A stretch of 64,000 nt of DNA, taken from an uncultured Gammaproteobacteria bacterium (GTDB lineage: Bacteria; Patescibacteriota; Microgenomatia; JAUYPR01). Positions within the stretch are counted from its first letter, which is position 1. Each line of letters opens with the position of its first letter. The stretch lies in assembly GCA_964372495.1 (NCBI GenBank), contig CAYJQU010000002.1:25040-89039 (forward strand), in the 5' to 3' direction. Positions 5,017 through 61,150 of this stretch are shown in pieces. Made by a program: the position numbers and the translations under genes. The notes beneath the pieces are model-generated. The model saw only the letters and a list, made by a program, of their open reading frames with translations. It was not told the origin of the DNA and did not search any database.

Positions 5017-6234
5017 ATGAGCGATATGGAAAGAATGCCGGGCCCTAGTGCTGACTGGGTGAGAAAAAGAAAGGGTGATAGAGTAAAAGTAGAAGTTGTT
5101 CAGGTCGACCCAAATACTGGAGTTACTACAATCTGGGCAAAACACTTGAAGTATTTTAGAGAATCAAGAATTGACCAACTTCCTCACAGTGGCTTATATC
5201 GCTGTATCTCCCGTTCTGCAAAGCCAGGAACAATTCCTGAACAACCCAGTTATGCAATCGAGGCGCATCACTCTGGAATCCATAAACATATAGCTTTGGA
5301 AAGAGCAGCTGATGGTTTAGGCTTAGGTTTAAAATTGCATATAATTGATGAATCAGAACCTAACCATTTTTTTGTAAACTATCAAGTCGACCATCTCAGA
5401 AGTATCGGGATACATCACAATTCGATGGATTTGGATGCAATTTACCAATCTTTAAAAGCTCGTCCCCTAGGTGCTAATCTTCTAGAGCTGGGAGAATTTT
5501 ATCGCAATACTGGTGCTGTTGCAACCTTTAACCCTTCTATGGGAGTAGTTGGCCCAGAGCTAGATGGGGACCAAAGGCTATATCTTGATTGGGCTCAATC
5601 TGAAACCAGATGGAAGAGAGACAAAATTATGAAAAATTGGACTGATGAGGAAAGAGCTAGAGTTATAATTGAAGTTGGTACAATCGTAAAAGGCGCTGTG
5701 ACGCAACATTTGGGACAAGATTTTCAACAACCTGATTTGGAGACATTAACTTCTGGTTTGATGGATGCTGTGTTAGTAGATTTACCTTTTGATTTTGATA
5801 CAAAAGAGGGAACTCTAGATAGATTAGCTGTTATTGCTGATTTAGTAGTTAGAAATACCGCCATGCTTGTTACAGCTAACAGACAAAAGTATGCGTATTT
5901 GAGTGATTTTACTGCGAACTTATATTTCTCACCACCAAATCGCGAAGAAATTGGTATAGAGATTGAAGATTTTGAATATGAGCCGATCCACAGAGACAGT
6001 TTAAGATTTGGAGAACGGTATAGGTATGAAGATTATGATTATTTAGTTACCAGAGATAATTCAGGCAGAGTAACTACTAGAATTGTCCGCATATTAGGAA
6101 AAACAACACCGTTACAAGTAACTGTCCGCGAGGAAATTGATTTGGAGGCATTAACCAAACTCTTAACGACTCCTGAAAGTATTGGGTGGGAGAAAGCATT
6201 AAGGGTTGCTGATATAGAACTTCAAAAAGGTTAA
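5017..6234 (+). CDS. Hypothetical protein (405 aa), AT-rich orphan gene
   Basis: 1.2-kb uninterrupted ORF in roughly 38-42 percent GC DNA, flanked by roughly 58 percent GC DNA. A TATAAT box at 5002-5007 precedes it. The start could be ATG 5017 or ATG 5035, the latter after GGAAAG. It has a His-rich segment HHSGIHKH and no recognisable domain. Confidence 0.6.
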   Translation: MSDMERMPGPSADWVRKRKGDRVKVEVVQVDPNTGVTTIWAKHLKYFRESRIDQLPHSGLYRCISRSAKPGTIPEQPSYAIEAHHSGIHKHIALERAADGLGLGLKLHIIDESEPNHFFVNYQVDHLRSIGIHHNSMDLDAIYQSLKARPLGANLLELGEFYRNTGAVATFNPSMGVVGPELDGDQRLYLDWAQSETRWKRDKIMKNWTDEERARVIIEVGTIVKGAVTQHLGQDFQQPDLETLTSGLMDAVLVDLPFDFDTKEGTLDRLAVIADLVVRNTAMLVTANRQKYAYLSDFTANLYFSPPNREEIGIEIEDFEYEPIHRDSLRFGERYRYEDYDYLVTRDNSGRVTTRIVRILGKTTPLQVTVREEIDLEALTKLLTTPESIGWEKALRVADIELQKG

Positions 6235-9716: not shown

Positions 9717-11067
9717 CTAAGCGAATGTCGACACGCTCCATATCACGGGGAAATAGCGATGCTTCTCGGATATTTTTTAATTTGAGTATTTGCATGGTGA
9801 GGCGCTCGAGTCCAAAGGAAAACCCTCCCTCTGGAGGCATCCCGTACCGAAACGCCTGTAGATACAGCTCAAATGACTTCGGATTCATGCCACGCGACTC
9901 TATAGCAGCCACTAGTTGCGCGTAATCGGTGACCCGGAGGCTGCCGCTTGCCCACTCCAGTCCTCTACAGAGAAGGTCGCAGCTTAACGAGTACTCCGGC
10001 TGCTCTGGATCGGGATGGGTGTAGAATGGCTTTTTGGCAGTAGGAAAGTGCGTAACGGTGACAAAATCAGATCCATGCTCCCGCAGACTCCACGCGCATA
10101 AATCTCGCTCGTCCTCTGGAGTTAAATCTGGCTCTTTTCGATTGTCCCGCCTGGTTTTTTGGTACAGAAGTTCCTGTGCTTGCCTGAGAGTCAGGCGTGG
10201 AATTTTCTTACCAACCACAGGAGCTGTTACCCCAAACTGGACCAGGATTTCTTTACACGCTGTATTCACTCCCTCTACCAAGTCGATTGCTGTTTGCTCA
10301 AGCTCGTCGAGCAAGTTTTCAAAATGTTCGATAAACCCAATCTCTATATCCAGTTGGGTAACCTCAGAAAGATGTCGGGTGGTCACTGAAGGCTCAGCGC
10401 GGTACGCGTGCGCAATCGTGAACACCCGCTCAAACACTCCCACCATGATCTGTTTGTATAGCTGCGGACTTTGGGCAAGATATGCTTCTTTCCCATAATA
10501 GGAAAGCTCGAAGACTTCTGCGCCTCCCTCAGTCGCGGACGCGACGATGGTAGGTACCACAATTTCCGTACAGTCTCTGCGCAACGCTGACTCTCGGAAG
10601 CTGGTAAGCAGTGCCGCTTGCAGCGCAAAAATAGGACGGACACTTGAGTGTCGCAAGCTGAGGGTGCGATAATCAAGTAGTGTAGGGAGGGTTACTTCAA
10701 GACTCTTGCCTCCGGTGTCGAAGGGTAGACTTTCTGCTTTGGCAATGAGCCGTAGCTCTTCGGCTTGCAGCTCCACCGTTCCCGTAGCTAGTTTCGGGTT
10801 TACCAATTTCTCGGGGCGCTCCTTGACCGTTCCCGCCACGAGCACAACGTCTTCGGGCCGCAGACTCCCAGCCTGCTCTCCACTCAGTACAACCTGGAGA
10901 ACCCCGGTGCGGTCACGAAGATCTACAAACACAATCTTCCCGTGGTCCCGTCGTACTTGTACCCAGCCGTATACTGCAACTTTTTTGCCCACACGCGCAA
11001 GCGTCTCCCGAGCATACATGCGTTTCACAAAGGTCATTGTACCAAAACACCCCGTATTGACAAGCAA
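9706..11067 (-). CDS. aspS: Aspartyl-tRNA synthetase, archaeal/eukaryotic-type (AspRS2; could be non-discriminating)
   Basis: Class II aaRS with an N-terminal OB fold (GWV..RDHGKIVF), a QSPQLYKQ motif and a GGFSFGLERL motif 3. Its roughly 450-aa length fits the archaeal-type AspRS/AsnRS. Confidence 0.8.
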   Translation of the reverse strand: MLVNTGCFGTMTFVKRMYARETLARVGKKVAVYGWVQVRRDHGKIVFVDLRDRTGVLQVVLSGEQAGSLRPEDVVLVAGTVKERPEKLVNPKLATGTVELQAEELRLIAKAESLPFDTGGKSLEVTLPTLLDYRTLSLRHSSVRPIFALQAALLTSFRESALRRDCTEIVVPTIVASATEGGAEVFELSYYGKEAYLAQSPQLYKQIMVGVFERVFTIAHAYRAEPSVTTRHLSEVTQLDIEIGFIEHFENLLDELEQTAIDLVEGVNTACKEILVQFGVTAPVVGKKIPRLTLRQAQELLYQKTRRDNRKEPDLTPEDERDLCAWSLREHGSDFVTVTHFPTAKKPFYTHPDPEQPEYSLSCDLLCRGLEWASGSLRVTDYAQLVAAIESRGMNPKSFELYLQAFRYGMPPEGGFSFGLERLTMQILKLKNIREASLFPRDMERVDIRLDEK

Positions 11068-11217
11068 GCGCTCCTTATGCTAAAGTCCCCCTCATTATGT
11101 TGCGTACCGACGCACAGTATGCCTTCCAGTTTATTAAGCTCCACGTGAGTGGGGCTCTTTTGGGAGGCAGAAAGCGCACGCACATATAAGTAAGCAAAAG
11201 AATACGGTATAAAAACA

Positions 11218-11247
11218 GGAGCCTCTCAAGAGAAGAGAGGCTTTTTT
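11218..11247 (+). terminator. GC-rich hairpin GCCUCUC/GAGAGGC followed by U6, with an A5 tract on the 5' side (bidirectional terminator-like)
   Basis: 7-8 bp perfect stem with a 7-nt loop and TTTTTT at 11242-11247. GTATAAAAA lies 5-10 nt upstream and AAAGGAGAG plus ATG 11275 lie downstream. Confidence 0.5.
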
Positions 11248-11274
11248 AGTGCATGAAAGGAGAGTGAGAACAGG

Positions 11275-11511
11275 ATGGAAAGAGAAAGATATGGGTTAGC
11301 CCAGATGCGTTCGCTGGACCCAGTTGAGTGGCAACAGGCATGTGCGACCATGCGTGAGAAAGCAGCTAGGCAGCGCACATTGAATAGGGTTAGTTCGCCA
11401 GAAGATGCTGCAGCTCCCCGGCCGGCGACTACTCCATCGTCTGGAAACGAAGCAGTAAACCTTGGCGGCAAAGACCCTTACCGCCCGATTGGGAGGGTGC
11501 GTGTCTGGTAA
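11275..11511 (+). CDS. Hypothetical small protein (78 aa)
   Basis: AAAGGAGAG ribosome-binding site 10-18 nt upstream of the ATG. It lies downstream of a promoter-like TATAAA and the hairpin. No homology recognised. Confidence 0.35.
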   Translation: MERERYGLAQMRSLDPVEWQQACATMREKAARQRTLNRVSSPEDAAAPRPATTPSSGNEAVNLGGKDPYRPIGRVRVW

Positions 11512-11716
11512 AGTACCATCATGGAGTATCACTCCAGTACGCTACCATGGGCTCTTGACAGAACACTGCTGGAGTGATATATTCCCGTTCATTCAAATGA
11601 ATACGTGGCATTTCATTACCATTCTTCCGCTTATGGTGCTCCGAGCAATCGGAGCTACTTTGGGAGGGAACAGGTAAGAAAATAGTCGTATAAAAGTAAA
11701 AGGATAAGAAGTAAGA

Positions 11717-11746
11717 AACCTCCCAAAGAAACGGGAGGTTTTTGTT
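11717..11746 (+). terminator. GC-rich hairpin (AACCUCCC/GGGAGGUU) plus U-tract, paralogous to the element at 11218
   Basis: 8-bp stem, 8-nt loop, then TTTTTGTT. GTATAAAAG is upstream and GAAAGGAAG plus ATG 11761 are downstream. Confidence 0.5.
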
Positions 11747-11760
11747 GGTGAAAGGAAGTA

Positions 11761-12087
11761 ATGATGCAGTACGAAAGACGGCCCAGTAAAAAACCAACTG
11801 CGTTCGAGCGGTATATAACATTTGTGCTCTTTACATGTCATACCATAAACGACGTATCCTCTACCGAGACGCGTCGTGCAATGCTCCATCATGAAGCGGC
11901 AGACGAATATCGGAGGGCTTATAACGTTGGTCTTCCGAAGGCTTACCAAATGGTCAGGGCAGATCTTGATAAAGTTTTAAGATGTGACCAATCGAACGGT
12001 TTTGCACCAATAGCAATGCCATCAGAAAAATGGCGAGGTCAGAATAGAAACAACTATTGCACCCACGATATAAGTGGGGTACGCTAA
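11761..12087 (+). CDS. Hypothetical small protein (108 aa)
   Basis: Ribosome-binding site GAAAGGAAG 5-13 nt upstream. It is the second copy of the promoter-hairpin-smallORF arrangement. Confidence 0.35.
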   Translation: MMQYERRPSKKPTAFERYITFVLFTCHTINDVSSTETRRAMLHHEAADEYRRAYNVGLPKAYQMVRADLDKVLRCDQSNGFAPIAMPSEKWRGQNRNNYCTHDISGVR

Positions 12088-12302
12088 AAAGCATGGCAGC
12101 ATCTCCGGACCGACCATCGTCAATAACTTATTTTAGGAGAGGCGGGGCAGAGTCACCCGCTCGTTTGCGCGGGCACTTTAACAGCCTTGCGGTACATGCG
12201 GCGCGTCAGAAGGACACATATACAAGAATCCCTCTGACTCGACGTCGCGAGATTTCCGCTTCTCGCCTTGACAACCACAGAGGTACTCCTCATGATAGAA
12301 GT

Positions 12303-12938
12303 GTGAGCGACCTGTTTGACGAAGAGACCCCTATTACAAAATCACCGGTGCAGCGTACTCGTCGCAGAGGGTTCCTGGGAACGGCGGTAAAGATCGCGGG
12401 GGGTGCCGGTGTCGCTCTGGCTGGAGGTGTGACAATAGCAAGAAATATCGAACCAGCAATGGCCAAATGGTACGAGGTTACGGGAGATCCACGTTTTTTC
12501 CAAGCCAAAGCGCGAGAACTGTTCTCCTCGCCTCCTCCCAATGCACCACTTCTTTCCGACATTTCAATAGCCACAGTATTCCCTGCAGAAAACATCTATA
12601 AACAACAGTACATTAAGGGTGCAACCCTGCGTGCCGCTCCCATTATCTCAGGAAATGCTATTGGAGAAACACAAGCAATTCCCCGAGGGACAAGGCTGCC
12701 GGAAGGTTACATCATTGAAGATGGGTTTGATGAAGTTATAGGGGATAACCGATGGTTCGTTTTTCCTCTCGCGCAGCTCCTTAAAGAAAACCCTACCATC
12801 AAGATAGATCGATCAAAAATTCCCGCAGGTACCGAATTTACATTTATCCATCTAGCAAATACAAGCGTGTGGGGAACAGAAAAGATAACTCACATTACGC
12901 CGATTCGTTGGCGACACTTACCCTCCGCACGTCCCTGA
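12303..12938 (+). CDS. Putative Tat-exported protein (start uncertain)
   Basis: Twin-arginine motif TRRRGFLG followed by a hydrophobic h-region AVKIAGGAGVALAGG. The track ORF starts at 12057 but has no in-frame ATG. GTG at 12303 or 12348 would place the Tat signal at the N-terminus. Confidence 0.4.
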   Translation: MSDLFDEETPITKSPVQRTRRRGFLGTAVKIAGGAGVALAGGVTIARNIEPAMAKWYEVTGDPRFFQAKARELFSSPPPNAPLLSDISIATVFPAENIYKQQYIKGATLRAAPIISGNAIGETQAIPRGTRLPEGYIIEDGFDEVIGDNRWFVFPLAQLLKENPTIKIDRSKIPAGTEFTFIHLANTSVWGTEKITHITPIRWRHLPSARP

Positions 12939-14526
12939 TTTTTAACTGCACGCGTGTATTACCATTCCAGACATCTTGTAACACGCTGTAGGCAATATCC
13001 AGCAAATCTCCTGGAGCAAGTATGGAAGCAAGCTCCCCGTGCCCAAACCCAATTGCGTCAACAGACACGCGATCAGATGGGGCAGACACCGTTAGTTTGA
13101 GGTGTTTATTGCCATTGCCTACGGCACGCACACGCTCAACCTGTAGTCCCGAAGACATGAATACCGGCTCGGGATTGCCTATCCCAAACGGTTCCAATAC
13201 TCGCATTCGCTCATACAACTCCCGCCCAACAAGCCCCACCGGAATCAAGGCATCTATCAAAAGGGTACGCGTCAGAAGTTCTGGGGCCAGTTTTTCTTGA
13301 GCTATGCTCATAAGGCACTCGCGCAGCGCCGGGATATTGCCCGTTTCGATGGTAAAACCTGCCGCCATGGGGTGACCTCCTACATCAACAAGCAAATCTT
13401 TTGCCGATCGAAGGGCTTCAACAATATTGAATCCTGCCACTGAGCGAGCTGATCCTTTGCTGATAGCTGCCCCTTGGCTAATCACCACTGCCGGACGATA
13501 ATGCTGCTCGACAAGCCTTCCTGCAATAAGGCCAATAATCCCCTGTTGCCATGACGGACTTGCCATGACAATTACCCTGTCAGTATCGACATTGACTCGT
13601 TTTATCTGTTCAAGCGCATGTTGCACCCCTTCTGTGGTAAGTTGCTGGCGCCGCGCGTTGGCAGTACACAGAACCTGGGCAAGCTGACGCGCCCGTGCAC
13701 CATTGGTGGTGCACAAAAGCCGCAGCGCGTCAAGGGCATGGTCCAGCCGTCCCAACGCGTTTATGCGCGGCACTAGGAGGTGCCCGACCTCATACGTGGA
13801 AAGCTGCCCAACGCTGAGACCGCTCGCCGCAATAAGCTCCTGGAGTCCGAATGACGACGTCGCGTTGAGTACTGAAAGTCCCAGTCGAGCCAAGATACGA
13901 TTTTCTCGCGTAAGCGGAACAAGATCCGCGATTGTAGCGGTGGCCACAAGATCAAGATACTTCTGCGGATATCGATGCTTAGTCAGTACTTGTGCCAGCT
14001 TCCACGCCACTGCTGCCCCGCATACGTTCGTATCATGCACAATCGCGAAAGCGTCCGGTAATTCCGGTGGCGCTACGTGATGGTCTGTAATGATAACATC
14101 AACAGATTTCTCTCGCGCATGTTCTACTGCCTCTATGCTTGTGATACCACAATCAACCGTGATAATAAGTTGTGTGCCGTCCCCGATTAATCGATCAACC
14201 GCTTCTTTCTTTAACCCATACCCTTCTTTCTCTCGATGCGGGATATAGGGCAGCACCTTGGCACCAATACCCCGGAGGGTCTGCCACAACAGCGCAACTC
14301 CGCAAATACCGTCCGCGTCATAATCAGAGTAAATCGCTATCTGCTCGTCGCGTTCAATCGCGCGCTGAATGCGCTTTGCGGCTTTCTGTATACCGGGTAG
14401 ATCAAAACGAAGGATTGAAATTGAAGCTTTTGTATCAATACCCCGCTTGGCAAGGAGCAGTGCTAATAAACTCTCCTGATCTTTCGCTTCATCCCCATCT
14501 GTCAGTGACCATACGTACCGTCGCAT
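12895..14526 (-). CDS. recJ: Single-stranded-DNA-specific exonuclease RecJ
   Basis: DHH-family motifs DYDADGI, VDCGITS and IITDHH, and a DHHA1-like C-terminal half. Confidence 0.9.
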   Translation of the reverse strand: MRRYVWSLTDGDEAKDQESLLALLLAKRGIDTKASISILRFDLPGIQKAAKRIQRAIERDEQIAIYSDYDADGICGVALLWQTLRGIGAKVLPYIPHREKEGYGLKKEAVDRLIGDGTQLIITVDCGITSIEAVEHAREKSVDVIITDHHVAPPELPDAFAIVHDTNVCGAAVAWKLAQVLTKHRYPQKYLDLVATATIADLVPLTRENRILARLGLSVLNATSSFGLQELIAASGLSVGQLSTYEVGHLLVPRINALGRLDHALDALRLLCTTNGARARQLAQVLCTANARRQQLTTEGVQHALEQIKRVNVDTDRVIVMASPSWQQGIIGLIAGRLVEQHYRPAVVISQGAAISKGSARSVAGFNIVEALRSAKDLLVDVGGHPMAAGFTIETGNIPALRECLMSIAQEKLAPELLTRTLLIDALIPVGLVGRELYERMRVLEPFGIGNPEPVFMSSGLQVERVRAVGNGNKHLKLTVSAPSDRVSVDAIGFGHGELASILAPGDLLDIAYSVLQDVWNGNTRVQLKIRDVRRVSVANESA

Positions 14527-14560
14527 CGCGAACTTCTATTGTACAAGGTATACTTTACCT

Positions 14561-15913
14561 ATGGCAAACAACGCGCTTCCGCTTCCAGCGTCCATCCGCA
14601 ACGTTTTTACTACTCTTGCCGACAACGGGCACCGAGGATTCGTGGTGGGCGGGGCGGTGAGGGATCTTTTGACTCAGAAGGAGCCGCACGACTGGGACTT
14701 CGCAACCGACGCGAGACCTGACCACATTCTAGGTATCTTCCCCGGCAGTTTCCTCAATAACCAATACGGGACTGTTGGGGTGCCACTTCCTCAGCCAATC
14801 GGTAATGCAGAAATAACCACATTCCGGAAGGAAGGAAAGTATCAGGACTTTCGACACCCGAGCACGGTCGAATGGGGCCGCACCATCGAGGAAGATCTTG
14901 CGCGCCGAGATTTTACCATAAACGCGATGGCTGTCGGCCAAGACGGGCAGGTCGTTGACCCATACCATGGACGGGAAGACCTGGAGGCTGGCTTGATTCG
15001 AACGGTGGGAGATCCGCATACACGCTTTTCCGAGGACGCACTGCGGCTACTGCGGGCGGTGCGGCTGTCCGTTGAACTTGGCTTCACTATCGAACCAGCC
15101 ACCCTCCTTGCCGTACAAGAAAATGTTCACCTGATACAACACGTCTCGGGAGAGCGCATCCGCGATGAGCTCCTCAAGATGCTTGCTGCCCCAACCGAAG
15201 CGTCTGCCAACAGCTTCTTCTTGCTCCGGGAAGTTGGACTTCTTGCACATATACTACCAGAATTGGAGCACGCGTTTGCGCAACCGCAGGCGCGGCACCA
15301 TACACATGACGTTGGCACGCATCTCGTGCTCTCTTTAAAACACTGCCCCTCACCGGACCCCATCGTCCGACTTGCAACGCTCCTACATGATATTGGCAAG
15401 CCGGCAGTCGCTCGTAAGGAGGATAACTTGATTACGTTTTTCAACCATGAGGTGGTCGGAGTGCCCATCGCCCGTCGCATCCTAGATCGTTTGCATGTTA
15501 CCCGCAAAGATCGAGATCGCATTCTCAATCTTATCCGGTGGCACCAGTTCACAGTGGATGAGCACATTACCGATGCTGCGGTTCGGCGTTTCATTCAGCG
15601 GGTGGGTGTGGAAAACGTCAACGATATGCTTGACCTGCGCATTGGGGACCGATTGGGAGGTGGGTGCCGGGAAGCGGAAAGCTGGAGACTTAGACTGTTC
15701 AAAAAGCGTATTTGGGAGGTTCAGCATCCACCTCCGACAGCGGCAGATCTGGCAATCGACGGCCACGACGTGATGCGCGAGTTCAACCTGCAACCCGGAC
15801 CACAGGTTGGGAAAATCCTCAATACGCTGTTCGAAGAAACAGTAGACGACCCGAGTAAGAATAACCGAGAATACTTACTGCAGCGCCTGAAGGAGTTGAA
15901 AAAACACGAGTGA
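14561..15913 (+). CDS. cca: CCA-adding tRNA nucleotidyltransferase with HD domain
   Basis: GGAVRD..DWD polymerase-beta head motif plus an HD domain (HTHDVGTH...LLHDIGK). Confidence 0.85.
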   Translation: MANNALPLPASIRNVFTTLADNGHRGFVVGGAVRDLLTQKEPHDWDFATDARPDHILGIFPGSFLNNQYGTVGVPLPQPIGNAEITTFRKEGKYQDFRHPSTVEWGRTIEEDLARRDFTINAMAVGQDGQVVDPYHGREDLEAGLIRTVGDPHTRFSEDALRLLRAVRLSVELGFTIEPATLLAVQENVHLIQHVSGERIRDELLKMLAAPTEASANSFFLLREVGLLAHILPELEHAFAQPQARHHTHDVGTHLVLSLKHCPSPDPIVRLATLLHDIGKPAVARKEDNLITFFNHEVVGVPIARRILDRLHVTRKDRDRILNLIRWHQFTVDEHITDAAVRRFIQRVGVENVNDMLDLRIGDRLGGGCREAESWRLRLFKKRIWEVQHPPPTAADLAIDGHDVMREFNLQPGPQVGKILNTLFEETVDDPSKNNREYLLQRLKELKKHE

Positions 15914-20253: not shown

Positions 20254-21255
20254 TTACTTTGAGGAGGGTGGGGGAGCGAGGTAATCTTGTAAGGTTAGGG
20301 CACCGTGCGGCCTTTCAAGTTCTCGTAGAACTGCCCTGCCTATCTCACCTGAAAAGTACGCTTTATACAAAGGGAGACGGCCACGCACCGGGTCTGGCTT
20401 GAATCCCAGTTTTGCTGCGATCCTTGAAATCCAGCCTAATTCTGGCCCAGCAGGAGCACAAGGAAAATTAACCCGCCAGATGTCACGTTGGTCAGTTTGT
20501 CTGGTAAACTCCTCATTTTCTCGTCCTACATAATCCAGAATAAATTCCTTGCCAAGCGGCTTCTGGATAAGGCACTTCGCAACAAGTCTATCAAACGCTA
20601 CGCCGAGAGCAACCTCTGACTTTAATCTTTCGTTAGCCTCCATATAACACAGATGTACCCTAGTTCCTGCCACGACGATTATATCCGCTATATCCGCACG
20701 CGGAACGTCTATGAACCGTTTGGCTGCGAGCACTTTTCTATACTGACGCGCGGGCACTCCTACCTCAAGAGAAACAGACCAGCGGGCCGAGAGAAGTGCT
20801 TCGTAGCACTGGTCCATTTCCCACTGTAAGGCAGCGGGTAGGGAAGCAAGTTTCTGCGCACGCGGCCAATACGGGATACTCATTCCCAAAATCTCCTCCG
20901 CAAGTGTCGCCTCGGCAAGTGCACGGTGAGCCGCATCGCCTGTCGGAAACTGATAATTCTCTAGTACTCCATACAAAGCTTTTCCACTACGTGTAATCTG
21001 AAGTGTCATCCTGTTCTCGCAAGAAACTGTCCATTCTCCCGGTCGCACTGTCACTGCCGGCCAGACTACTGCATCAAAGACTGTCTTTGGAAGGAGAAAA
21101 ATCTCGTCGGGATGAAACATCGCCTCTTGGTTTATCTGCAATACGGGATAGCGTCTGCGTAGAAACTGTCCCAGCCCGTATGTTGCCTGAACAGTCAACT
21201 GCTTGGCCGTACTATCGTAGTGTGCAGCCTGTATTTCCGTTCGATCGGTAAGCAT
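20254..21255 (-). CDS. Hypothetical protein (333 aa)
   Basis: Long ORF on the same strand as secD. No motif recognised. Confidence 0.45.
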   Translation of the reverse strand: MLTDRTEIQAAHYDSTAKQLTVQATYGLGQFLRRRYPVLQINQEAMFHPDEIFLLPKTVFDAVVWPAVTVRPGEWTVSCENRMTLQITRSGKALYGVLENYQFPTGDAAHRALAEATLAEEILGMSIPYWPRAQKLASLPAALQWEMDQCYEALLSARWSVSLEVGVPARQYRKVLAAKRFIDVPRADIADIIVVAGTRVHLCYMEANERLKSEVALGVAFDRLVAKCLIQKPLGKEFILDYVGRENEEFTRQTDQRDIWRVNFPCAPAGPELGWISRIAAKLGFKPDPVRGRLPLYKAYFSGEIGRAVLRELERPHGALTLQDYLAPPPSSK

Positions 21256-21355
21256 ACGAATAGTGGTGAACTTTAGTATATTGGTCCTGCAAAGTCAAAT
21301 CGCGATTGCGCCACTCGTGCTTTTAATGCCATGATACAGAGAGGTCTTTTCACCC

Positions 21356-40781: not shown

Positions 40782-40889
40782 CTTGGAGGTCGCTGCATAC
40801 TACTCACTACTGCTGAAAGGCCAGGCCTTTAAATGGTCACCAACTCTTGATTTACAAAAAGTGCTTGAGACAGTAGAATAACCGGTTAT

Positions 40890-41327
40890 ATGTCAGCAGG
40901 TACGATATGGGGTAGTCTCGGTGGGTCTCCTGAGAGAAGTGTCCCCGGGGCCAGGACAAGTCACACCTCGTTTCCTCGGCTGGAACCAGATATCAACTGG
41001 CATTTAGACAGAAGAGACCTCTACCGCCGAAATCTAGTGACCTGTATTTTACGCGACGCTTGGGGTTTGAGGTGCGCTCTAGCTGAATCCAACCCCACGG
41101 CCGCTACCTTTCATATAGACGGCCTCATAGTCTATGAAAAACTGGCGCGGGAAGCACTGGTGAGCTATGACTTACTTAACCTTGTGTACGTTGACCCACG
41201 GCTTGTAAAACAATTAATGCGGCTGCGCCGCGCACAGCTTACAAAACTTGCGAAGCAAAGAGGTATTCCCGTGGAGGTTCCTATAAGCAAGCAGATCCTG
41301 CAATTCTGGAAACAGGAGCGACAGTAA
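40890..41327 (+). CDS. Hypothetical protein (145 aa)
   Basis: ORF only. No motif recognised. Confidence 0.3.
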   Translation: MSAGTIWGSLGGSPERSVPGARTSHTSFPRLEPDINWHLDRRDLYRRNLVTCILRDAWGLRCALAESNPTAATFHIDGLIVYEKLAREALVSYDLLNLVYVDPRLVKQLMRLRRAQLTKLAKQRGIPVEVPISKQILQFWKQERQ

Positions 41328-59012: not shown

Positions 59013-61103
59013 TTATGTGCCTTTTGCTTTCGCAATAATAGCTTCTGCAATGTTTGCTGGCACCTCTTGGTAATGGGAAGGCTCCATATAGTAACCTGCC
59101 CTCCCTTGGGTCATACTCCTCAACTCTGTTGCATATCCAGGTAACTCCGCCAGCGGTCCTTCTGACATAATAACCACGGCATTCGCCCGCTTCTCGGTAC
59201 CCAAAATCTGGGCTCGCTTGCTTGATAAATTACCGATCACTTCACCCATAAACTCTTCAGGAGTCGTCACTTCAAGTTTCATGATCGGTTCCAAAAGTAC
59301 CGGTTCGGCGTGCCGCGTGGCCTGCTCAAGTGCCATAGACCCGGCGATTTTAAACGCAATCTCCGACGAATCCACCTCGTGATACGTACCATCATACACC
59401 ACAACTTTCATATCCACGAGTGGATACCCCGCTACAACCCCTGCCTCCATCCGCTCCCTGACACCTTTCTCTATGGCCGGGATAAACTCCCGCGGAATTG
59501 CTCCGCCGACCACTTCTGACACCCACTGGTAGCCTTCACCCCGGGCACGTGGCTCAACCCGGAGGAAACAATGCCCATACTGCCCCCGTCCGCCAGATTG
59601 ACGAATATATTTCCCCTCACCTATGGCTGCGTGCTTGATCGTTTCTTTGTACGCCACCTGCGGCTTCCCCACATTTGCACCAACGCGGAATTCGCTCCTT
59701 AAACGGTCAACGAGCACCTCAAGCTGTAGTTCTCCCATACCTGAAATAATGGTCTGTCCTGTCTCGTGGTCAATCTTTACCCGAAACGTGGGATCTTCCT
59801 CAGAAAGTCTACCAAGCGCATAGCCCATCTTCTCCTGGTCAGCTTTTGTCTTTGGCTCTATGGCAAGCGATATTACCGGATCAGAGAATGTAATACCTTC
59901 CAACACAATAGGTGCTTGTTCAGAAGCCAAGGTATCTCCGGTACCGGTCTTTTCCAATCCAATAACTGCCACGATCTCGCCTGCAAACGCCTCGGGTACT
60001 TCCTCGCGCTGATTGGCGTGCATAAGGACCACACGACCTACTCGCTCCTTCTCGCCCTTAGTTGCGTTGAGCACATATGACCCACTTTTTAAGGTACCAG
60101 AATAGATCCGCACATAGGTTAACTTTCCCACATGCGGATCCACTTGAATTTTAAACGCCAAGCCTGAAAATGGCGCCGACGGATCGGCTTTGCGTATTTC
60201 CTGGACCTGACTTTTTGGATTGTATCCAGAGACTTCAGGAATGTCAAGCGGGGACGGCAAAAAGTCTACGATAGCGTCCAGTAATGGCTGCACTGCCTTG
60301 TTGCGTAGACTTGAGCCAGCCAGCACTGGCACAATCTTATACTCAATCACCGCTCGCCGGAGTGCGACCTTCAGTTCGTCGACTGTAAGTTCCTGGCCAT
60401 TTAAGTACTTCTCAAGGATTGTATCATCGGTCTCAGCTATTTTTTCGACCAGCACGCGGCGAGCCTGCGTACACTGCTCACGTACATCCTCTGGAATTTC
60501 TTCCTTCCGGTATGTGGCACCGGTCTCATCTCCCTCCCAAATCAGCGCTGCCATGGTCAGCAGGTCCGCTACACCCCGGAAGGTCTGTTCCTTCCCTATG
60601 GGAATATTGTACGGTACTGCGTTGGCGCCCAGACGGTCTCGCACCGTTTGCACTGTGTGCTCAAAATCAGCGCCCAGCTTATCCATCTTATTGACAAAGC
60701 AGATGCGGGGAACCTTATACTTATCAGCTTGACGCCATACGGTTTCCGACTGGGACTGCACTCCCTCCTCTGCATCCAGCACAGTCACTCCACCATCCAA
60801 CACGCGCAGCGACCGCTCAACCTCTGCCGTAAAGTCCACATGACCCGGCGTGTCAATAAGGTTCAATCGAACATCTTTCCAGAAAGTTGTCGTCGCGGCA
60901 GACACGATCGTAATCCCCCGGGCCCGCTCTTGCTCCATCCAGTCAGTGACGGTCGTTCCTTCGTCGATATCGCCTAACTTATAGGTCCGGCCAGTGTAAA
61001 ACAGGATACGTTCAGTCGTAGTAGTTTTGCCCGCGTCAATATGCGCAATGATGCCAAAATTGCGAATCTTATCTAGAGGATATAAACGCGATGGAATCAC
61101 CAT
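59013..61103 (-). CDS. fusA: Elongation factor G
   Basis: AHIDAGKTT and DTPGHVDF G-domain and EF-G domains II-V. Confidence 0.95.
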
Positions 61104-61118
61104 AATCGTATTTTACGG

Positions 61119-61150
61119 CAAAGAAAAAAGCTTCCTCAATTGGAAGCTTT
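61119..61150 (-). terminator. Rho-independent terminator (AAAGCUUCC-AAUUGA-GGAAGCUUU then UUUUUCUUU), ending 16 nt upstream of the fusA AUG
   Basis: Read on the minus strand: a perfect 9-bp stem, a 6-nt loop and a U-tract. Confidence 0.6.

Follow-up and report, generated by a model that had tools for sequence, protein, structure and literature searches.

Tandem leaders beside aspS in a candidate phyla radiation genome as candidate translation-dependent transcription attenuators

The attenuators of amino-acid operons (trp, his, leu, thr, ilv and pheA) carry close to the promoter a short open reading frame (ORF) laid over the first of four RNA segments, which pair alternatively as 1:2, 2:3 or 3:4, with a stop codon near segment 2 and an intrinsic terminator directly upstream of the structural gene. 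The upstream-ORF (uORF) attenuators of Firmicutes (ermK, vmlR, bmrCD) are led by a Shine-Dalgarno (SD) sequence, often need specific stalling peptides and precede resistance genes, and attenuators of the PyrR and riboswitch types have a layout of three helices as well. In mycobacteria, leaderless polycysteine short ORFs at the 5' end of operons are ribosome-based sensors that act translationally, i.e. the stalled ribosome opens a structure hiding the downstream ribosome-binding site, and tracts of Cys codons are needed for it (Canestrari et al., bioRxiv 10.1101/834739). No attenuator was found described in the candidate phyla radiation (CPR, or Patescibacteria) in the literature that we searched. 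Most of these bacteria are uncultured; their genomes are reduced and their way of life is probably symbiotic. A conserved, structurally defined attenuator would provide this group with a concrete, testable regulatory element. Here we analyse two tandem modules, each made of a promoter, a leader and a small downstream ORF, which lie divergent from aspS, the aspartyl-tRNA synthetase (AspRS) gene, in 64 kb of contig CAYJQU010000002.1 (the window, i.e. the whole stretch of 64,000 nucleotides, nt), and which we read, with a probability of roughly 0.55, as ribosome-dependent, trp-like transcription attenuators using a leaderless leader ORF.

All the parts listed above for amino-acid attenuators recur in the modules, which differ from them in lacking a cognate codon run, in their SD-less start, in preceding hypervariable orphans instead of biosynthetic enzymes and in their CPR host, which we assume to be devoid of amino-acid biosynthesis. 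The nearest conceptual relatives are the mycobacterial elements, with a leaderless short ORF as sensor such as is proposed for the modules, but the modules end in an intrinsic terminator, keep the SD outside the hairpins and have no Cys tract. As in the uORF attenuators of Firmicutes, there are no amino-acid codon runs, stalling would pick the antiterminator and the state of translation would be sensed; unlike them, the modules encode mutually unrelated peptides and precede genes without recognisable function. PyrR, T-box and terminator-type riboswitch elements share the succession of anti-antiterminator, antiterminator and terminator, whereas the modules show no conserved binding motif or aptamer core, their hairpin P2 is dispensable in the family and no Rfam family matches them. 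At the gathering score, Rfam recognised one transfer RNA (tRNA) and nothing else in the window; two sub-threshold matches were all that it returned for the leader region at E <= 10, and tRNAs all that it returned for 11 related loci. T-box, PyrR or riboswitch identity was rejected on the lack of a family match. Phe_leader (RF01859) aligns with module 2 end to end, from the AUG to the U-tract, at 22.5 bits against a threshold of 55 (E 0.58); membership in this family was rejected on that score and because there is no run of Phe codons, of which leader ORF 2 has one and leader ORF 1 two, non-adjacent.

Architecture of the two leaders

The original prediction, made from the letters of the window, had described two tandem paralogous modules, each with a GGGAGG box, a -10-like motif, a GC hairpin followed by a U-tract, a ribosome-binding site and a small ORF. 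The boxes, -10-like motifs (GTATAAAA, Table 1), hairpins, ribosome-binding sites and ORFs were all found where it had placed them and in the same order in both modules. The boxes are TGGGAGGCA (11161-11169) and TGGGAGGGA (11661-11669); the hairpins are AGCCTCTC/GAGAGGCT (11220-11242, then T6) and AAACCTCCC/GGGAGGTTT (11716-11741, then T5); the ribosome-binding-site motif TGAAAGGA stands at 11254-11261 and 11749-11756; and the ORFs start with ATG at 11275 (78 amino acids, aa; ORF78) and at 11761 or 11764 (108 or 107 aa; ORF107). The elements inside the modules were thus rightly assigned, but the true starts lie about 100 nt upstream of the starts given at 11162 and 11662, and each module does have the upstream plus-strand gene that had been reported missing, in the form of a 30- or 26-codon ORF beside its promoter (Table 1). 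As for paralogy, the claim stands for the leaders, whose promoter-to-ATG regions align locally with a z-score of 4.9 (0/300 dinucleotide shuffles equal the score), and not for the downstream ORFs, in which nucleotide similarity is absent (z -0.7) and protein similarity marginal (E 0.04). That the modules resemble each other beyond chance follows from this alignment, from the fold scores of the leaders (z about -4.3), from their terminators being the best in 64 kb and from their recurrence in other genomes.

Table 1. Positions of the elements of both modules in the window
Feature	Position	Strand	Description	Basis or remark
Module 1 promoter	11057..11086	+	sigma70-type TTGACA-18-TAAAGT, TG extension	promoter scan
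Leader ORF 1	11097..11189	+	30 codons, MLRTDAQYAFQFIKLHVSGALLGGRKRTHI + stop	ATG 10 nt past -10, no SD; crosses A, P2 and B
Segment A1	11121..11129	+	GCCUUCCAG, 5' strand of anti-antiterminator helix P1	A:B -15.5 kcal/mol, 0/200 shuffles
P2 hairpin 1	11137..11156	+	AGCUCCAC-GUGA-GUGGGGCU, GNRA loop, possible pause hairpin	fold
Segment B1	11156..11168	+	GGGAGG box (UCUUUUGGGAGGC)	pairs with A1, or with C1 and the terminator loop
GTATAAAA motif, module 1	11207..11214	+	in A-rich B-to-C linker, not a promoter	promoter scan; relatives
Terminator 1	11220..11247	+	C1 AGCCUCUC (11220-27), loop AAGAGAA, D1 GAGAGGCU (11235-42), U6	
SD and ORF78	11255..11511	+	SD GAAAGGAG (11255-62), ATG 11275, orphan protein	
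Module 2 promoter	11555..11583	+	sigma70-type TTGACA-17-TATATT, 11/12, TG extension	promoter scan
Leader ORF 2	11597..11677	+	26 codons, MNTWHFITILPLMVLRAIGATLGGNR + stop	ATG 13 nt past -10, no SD
Segment A2	11622..11628	+	UUCUUCC	CUUCC core displaced 1 nt relative to module 1, other reading frame
P2 hairpin 2	11638..11655	+	GCUCCGA-GCAA-UCGGAGC, GNRA loop	
Segment B2	11658..11668	+	CUUUGGGAGGG	first 10 nt perfectly complement 11719-11728
GTATAAAA motif, module 2	11688..11695	+	in linker, not a promoter	promoter scan
Terminator 2	11716..11743	+	C2 AAACCUCCC (11716-24), loop AAAGAAAC, D2 GGGAGGUUU (11733-41), U5	
SD and ORF108/107	11750..12087	+	SD GAAAGGAAG (11750-58), ATG 11761 or 11764, orphan protein	

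Computation finds in each module a promoter, a short ORF and three mutually exclusive helices, which covary and are conserved elsewhere. Four segments make up these helices, namely A:B (P1, the anti-antiterminator), B:C (the antiterminator) and C:D (the terminator), with the SD-led ORF coming next; the sequence of B nearly recurs in D, and that of C in A. From the predicted start, the default fold of both leaders consists of P1 enclosing the hairpin P2, followed by C:D (z about -4.3 each), so that A:B, with its 5' strand inside the leader ORF, belongs to the minimum-energy structure of both. The best available partner of C is in both cases B: the B:C duplex reaches -22.1 kcal/mol (13 bp) in module 1 and -19.0 kcal/mol (10 bp) in module 2, against -10.3 +/- 2.1 and -9.3 +/- 2.0 for shuffled upstream sequences, none of which attains these values (0/500 each). 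Masking the 5' end of module 1 through A flips its minimum-energy structure to B:C, and nascent module 2 RNA ending at C folds as B:C. Duplex and constraint folding therefore agree that the GGGAGG box can alternate between a partner upstream of it and the terminator's 5' arm, which bears out the suggestion of attenuation or of a regulatory leader made in the original prediction. In our own strict scan of canonical terminators over both strands of the 64 kb, the two leader hairpins come out as the best ones, and as the best ones with a long T-run; both downstream SDs (11255-62 and 11750-58) stay outside all helices. Intrinsic terminators are otherwise scarce, the same scan giving 9 over 128 kb of strand, most of which are weak or lie within genes.

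Two compensatory pair changes (A-U to G-C and C-G to A-U) distinguish P2 of one copy from that of the other, its loop remaining GNRA (GUGA vs GCAA), and the residues encoded across it differ (HVS to RAI) while pairing persists. This compensation and the frame shift of the A core (Table 1) point to selection on the RNA, and not on the peptide that it might encode.

The -35 element of module 1 (TTGACA, 11057-62, plus strand) overlaps that of the back-to-back aspS promoter (TTGTCA, 11063-58, minus strand; region 11036-11086), and the two promoters may compete for RNA polymerase. Among the related loci (designated by our L numbers), L028 carries a CTTGACAAG ... TGCTAAAGT promoter arrangement identical to that of module 1, and the shared CTTGACAAG -35 element, which the aspS promoter uses in reverse complement, is kept in most of them. 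Around the module 2 promoter a perfect 11-nt inverted repeat, TATCACTCCAG / CTGGAGTGATA (11527-11537 and 11569-11579, 31 nt apart), brackets the -35 and overlaps the -10; it might serve as an operator or, in read-through transcripts coming from module 1, form a hairpin.

Spacings of 7-13 nt between the -10 element and the AUG predict, from the promoter alone, 5' untranslated regions (UTRs) of 0-6 nt. The first genes of transcription units elsewhere in the window display a comparable geometry, with a sigma70-like -10 element 6-14 nt before the start and no SD, as seen in recJ (14526-14567, minus strand), in aspS, which starts with GTG at 11028 (11026-11063, minus), and in the ORFs starting at 40890 (40851-40892, plus), 5026 (5017-5030, plus), 61103 (61103-61140, minus) and 21255 (21255-21300, minus). 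Internal genes of the window carry GGAG-type SDs. Leaderless initiation is plausible in the modules because first genes share this spacing without an SD while internal genes have one, and leaderless mRNAs may be common in the CPR genome of the host.

Recurrence beside aspS and covariation

The AspRS encoded in the window is at most 60% identical to its homologues in metagenome-assembled genomes (MAGs) of Levybacteria and other Microgenomates, which assigns the window to a divergent CPR lineage (guanine plus cytosine content 52%). MAGs titled 'uncultured Gammaproteobacteria bacterium' (L006, L008-L012, L016, L018, L019, L021, L022 and L025) carry Levybacteria-like AspRS 57-60% identical to that of the window, and their taxonomic labels look wrong. 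Near-identical contigs from two Logan metagenome datasets were uninformative for comparison; samples in which the organism occurs include ERR3478686 and ERR4904391. The covariance search for the leader that the original prediction had proposed was run with a model, R1, built from the two window leaders and applied to 80 CPR aspS loci, and it recovered this architecture in Levybacteria-like genomes, in divergent orientation to aspS. Its top two matches, L006 (E 1e-3) and L021 (E 2.5e-3), both lie directly upstream of and divergent from aspS, and 7 of the 41 matches at E <= 10 fall in this site, which represents about 1.7% of the searched sequence and is the position of module 1. The order aspS-leader-recJ is also preserved in L006. 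The R1 search revealed no third leader copy in the window, and the pattern GCTCCN8GGRGCTNNTTTGGGAGG retrieved 4 metagenome matches, all of them chance coding sequences without a terminator, and 0 viral ones.

The relatives share the CTTGACAAG -35, a start codon 7-13 nt past the -10, a short ORF, an A:B hairpin and the B:C complement and, on the 3' side, a CUCC/GGAG terminator with U6-9 followed 10-30 nt on by an SD-led ORF. When every terminator in all loci was scanned, strong B:C pairing was almost confined to the aspS-divergent site, the exceptions being L078 and L074. Full leaders number 16 in all, of which 13, window copies included, were tabulated for geometry and energies. None of these 13 has an SD, and the start codon stands 7-13 nt past the -10 (20 nt in L013); their ORFs, of 14-32 codons, encode unrelated peptides. 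Measured from the start of B, the stop codon has its first nucleotide at -2 to +6 nt in 9 of the 13 and at +11 to +30 in L006, L021 and the two window copies. B:C energies range from -14 to -24 kcal/mol, values not reached by any of 200 shuffles in 9/13. The leader ORF geometry is present in 12/13, against 0.02-0.11 per locus under a dinucleotide-shuffle null, and the summed log10 p of -15 is optimistic, since the loci are related, though their ORF sequences are not alignable.

A plain MAFFT alignment of the region from B to D came out mis-registered, and covariation was therefore assessed on an ungapped alignment in which the CUC/GAG core anchors the 16 leaders. Anchoring registers the sequences by pairing and biases the pair counts upward, so that the shuffled and slid controls are the relevant comparison: B:C cells are paired in 70.8% of cases, against 59.3 +/- 2.2 when shuffled and at most 52% in slid controls; double-sided changes amount to 58 against 33.7 shuffled; and the B:C covariation score is 0.415, against 0.226 shuffled and at most 0.199 slid. 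For C:D the score is 0.209 against 0.131 shuffled, and the terminator covaries at two stem positions. Beyond the terminator stem the B:C flank is locus-specific (AUUGG/CCAAU, AUUUGG/CCAAAU, UUGAAC/GUUCAA, UAAUU/AAUUA, UUGGAA/UUCCAAA); in the window copies the extension goes instead into the terminator loop. In 15/16 folds of the nascent RNA, the partner of the B core is a pyrimidine tract upstream.

Among the genomes sampled, a tandem pair of leaders occurs only in the organism of the window. Its two members have in common features missing from the others, i.e. a B-to-C linker of about 50 nt with GTATAAAA, a GNRA-capped P2, a leader ORF reading through B and a B:C helix reaching into the terminator loop, and for this reason we regard them as a local duplication. 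Variant leaders (L018, L023, L029, L041, L042, L046, L047, L050 and L061) were observed about 100-300 nt upstream of aspS on the divergent strand, and their single terminator is sometimes a long-range A:D helix around an inner hairpin.

The composition of the leader peptides was surveyed over 21 loci. Asp and Glu are strongly depleted (0.15-fold), and all G-starting codon families are depleted too; Phe and Asn are enriched about 2-fold (Asn 1.9-fold), Cys about 3-fold, and Leu is also enriched. A Cys-Cys pair is found only in the leaders of L010 and L016, both beginning MNCC, and the two window peptides have no Cys residue. A conserved leader peptide with an 'LGG' motif like those of ribosomally synthesised and post-translationally modified peptides was considered and rejected, as LGG is what the B box encodes in frame and the peptides are otherwise unrelated. 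Sensing of Asp or Asn codons in connection with aspS was likewise discarded, as Asp is depleted and the excess of Asn often sits at position 2-3; we attribute it to A-rich codons following the AUG.

A ribosome-dependent switch and its alternatives

We propose that transcription of each module would begin a few nt upstream of the SD-less AUG, as a leaderless or near-leaderless start, and that a ribosome would translate the leader ORF of 26-30 codons over A, P2 and B. With A free of the ribosome, A:B would pair, the C:D terminator would form and transcription would stop about 150 nt from the start; a ribosome done with the ORF would either sit on or just past B or allow A:B to pair again, with termination as the outcome too. 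If the ribosome is slow or stalled over A while the polymerase makes C, B would be left free for the B:C helix, no terminator would form and the polymerase would read through into the SD-led ORF78 or ORF107. The output of the switch would be governed by the speed of leader translation. This ON/OFF logic is borrowed by analogy from the trp leader and is the least secure step of the model. Since there is no codon run for one amino acid, the signal is probably a general slowdown of translation, through charged-tRNA supply or ribosome inhibition, or else something different. The ribosome fits as the sensor because the start is conserved at the promoter, the frame is open over A, the stop falls at or just past B and the three helices are exclusive; a protein or a ligand fits less well, for neither P2 nor the loop sequences nor the peptide sequence is conserved. 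It is possible, albeit not what we would expect to hold in full, that the leaders constitute a previously undescribed, Microgenomates-wide family of leaderless-uORF attenuators, with a fixed location back-to-back to the promoter of aspS, and gate hypervariable orphans by general translation speed and not by the supply of one amino acid; the abundant terminated leader RNA or its peptide might then act in trans as well.

Several findings weigh against the trp-like attenuator. The transcription start and the translation of the leader ORF are deduced from promoter spacing only, and in module 2 and L013 the predicted 5' UTR is about 6-13 nt long, hence not strictly leaderless. The window leaders contain no same-amino-acid codon runs, tandem regulatory codons or rare codons, and the leader ORFs bear no protein-level signal, inasmuch as their composition looks like that of AT-rich non-coding sequence in which a frame is simply maintained and the AUG is followed by A-rich codons. 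A:B of module 2 does no better than shuffles when tested as a simple duplex. The stop codon of the two window leaders lies 6-17 nt past B, instead of at its 5' edge, which makes masking of B by a terminating ribosome marginal for module 1. To these must be added the upward bias of the pair counts mentioned above, the variant leaders, whose short ORF ends in the loop, the 3' arm or the base of a single terminator, and the regulated genes themselves, orphans without recognisable function that offer no physiological rationale to check.

The same elements could operate with the opposite logic, in which leader translation would permit read-through by melting A:B or an arm of the terminator and freeing B, the genes being on only while translation is active and coupled to transcription. 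We consider this unlikely, although the ORF of the variant relatives L018, L061, L041, L029, L042 and L047 ends in or at the single terminator, where a ribosome would block the hairpin, and although a ribosome terminating on leader ORF 1 would already have left B uncovered: with the stop abutting the 5' edge of B in 9/13 leaders, a terminating ribosome would hold B and favour C:D as in the trp leader, and once the ribosome has passed, the adjacent A and B should re-pair before B reaches C. The variant leaders hint, nonetheless, at a second logic class of translation-dependent read-through. It is also conceivable, at distinctly long odds, that the sensor is a trans-acting factor (protein, small RNA or metabolite) binding the A:B/P2 hairpin and that the short ORF is incidental. 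The GNRA loops of P2, with compensatory changes between the window copies, would suit a protein- or RNA-binding hairpin, and regulatory codons are not present; yet P2 is absent or different in L006, L020 and L024, the loop and junction sequences are unconserved, no Rfam cis-regulatory family matches, and such a factor has no need of a start conserved at the promoter and a stop at B.

A strong promoter and a strong terminator per unit might, on the other hand, define independent small genes, for a small RNA of about 150 nt or a peptide of 26-30 aa acting in trans, ORF78 and ORF107 being unrelated to them or not genes at all. In Sinorhizobium, attenuator-derived RNAs and leader peptides are reported to be able to act in trans (PMC6614838, PMC7298713), a precedent to which may be added the orphan status of ORF78 and ORF107 and their marginal coding scores. 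We give this explanation little chance, because it leaves the covarying B:C antiterminator unexplained, nearly every relative has an SD-led ORF 10-30 nt past the U-tract with no promoter between, some post-leader ORFs are conserved (L007/L030), and the leader peptides, which are unrelated to one another, would in most cases be too small to be membrane toxins. Attenuation and a role in trans could, however, occur together. Hardly credible, finally, is the anatomy first suggested for the modules, with GTATAAAA as a promoter -10 and a transcript starting at the hairpin, the latter stabilising the 5' end or being a bidirectional or minus-strand terminator put to a new use. The window holds exactly two copies of GTATAAAA, one in each module; both hairpins have A-rich and T-rich flanks, and the scan scores them as terminator-like on the minus strand too. 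But a usable -35 is lacking for GTATAAAA, the promoter scan does not report it and related leaders do not contain it, so that we rejected it as a promoter and take it as part of the linker; no minus-strand gene ends near the hairpins, the end of recJ being about 1.15 kb off; and the upstream promoter, the leader ORF, A:B and B:C would all be left unexplained.

The class of mechanism proposed here is familiar, whereas its phylum, its leaderless sensor ORF, its back-to-back slot with aspS and its hypervariable genes were not found described in the searched literature. Should the leaders constitute the Microgenomates-wide family considered above, no cis-acting family of RNA switches would, as far as we are aware, have been defined earlier for CPR bacteria, and the leaders would be evidence that leaderless initiation is a routine, regulatable step in these organisms. 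Our findings suggest that leaderless translation is widespread in CPR and used as a sensor, and that the fixed slot between aspS and, typically, recJ has contents which turn over fast and would be switched on by a translation-linked signal. The post-leader proteins, which evolve rapidly, can reasonably be put forward as candidates for roles in host interaction or stress. From the methodological point of view, a sequence-only observation and a synteny-guided covariance search sufficed to recover a family missing from Rfam.

Downstream genes and neighbouring features

Lack of conservation of the small ORFs had been named beforehand as evidence against regulatory modules, and in one sense this is what was found, ORF78 and ORF107 being orphans, while the leader itself is conserved in front of varied genes. 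Among 5.8 billion proteins, ORF107, ORF78 and a neighbouring protein with a twin-arginine translocation (Tat) signal matched only themselves, and searches of Pfam, PHROGs, NCBIfam and the PDB with the downstream proteins gave nothing. HMMER matches of ORF107 to repeat-rich proteins (the larger one DUF5801) were discarded as repeat-inflated and not credible, and its AlphaFold model is unusable (predicted local distance difference test score, pLDDT, 41). The codon usage of ORF78 and ORF107 scores near the 5th percentile of real genes, and the annotated frame is the best of six for each; they are probably real but fast-evolving genes. Across the relatives the genes after the leader encode 57-460 aa without Pfam domains and are mostly mutually unrelated, the related pairs being L007/L030 (40% identity, about 440 aa), L013/L024, L047/L050 and L029/L041. 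On these comparisons, the leader is a conserved control element before rapidly changing genes. The L007 ORF (4387-5769, minus strand) and the post-leader ORF of L030 make up a family of about 440-460 aa, and many N-termini of post-leader proteins read M..ER.[FY] or REF.

A third plus-strand promoter, TTGACA-17-CATGAT (12268-96; region 12268-12938), is followed after 6 nt by a GTG at 12303, which opens the orphan bearing a signal of twin-arginine type (RRRGFLG...). The start chosen by gene callers is 12165, yet 12057-12302 scores as non-coding. The octamer TTGGGAGG occurs 10 times in the window, where 2 occurrences are expected. An extra copy lies at 11489-11496, at the 3' end of ORF78 and 66 nt upstream of the module 2 promoter, and further copies are found at 15653, 15712 and 22636 on the plus strand and at 12534, 50832 and 60533 on the minus strand; those at 15653 and 15712 are inside a coding gene, the first being read as Leu-Gly-Gly.

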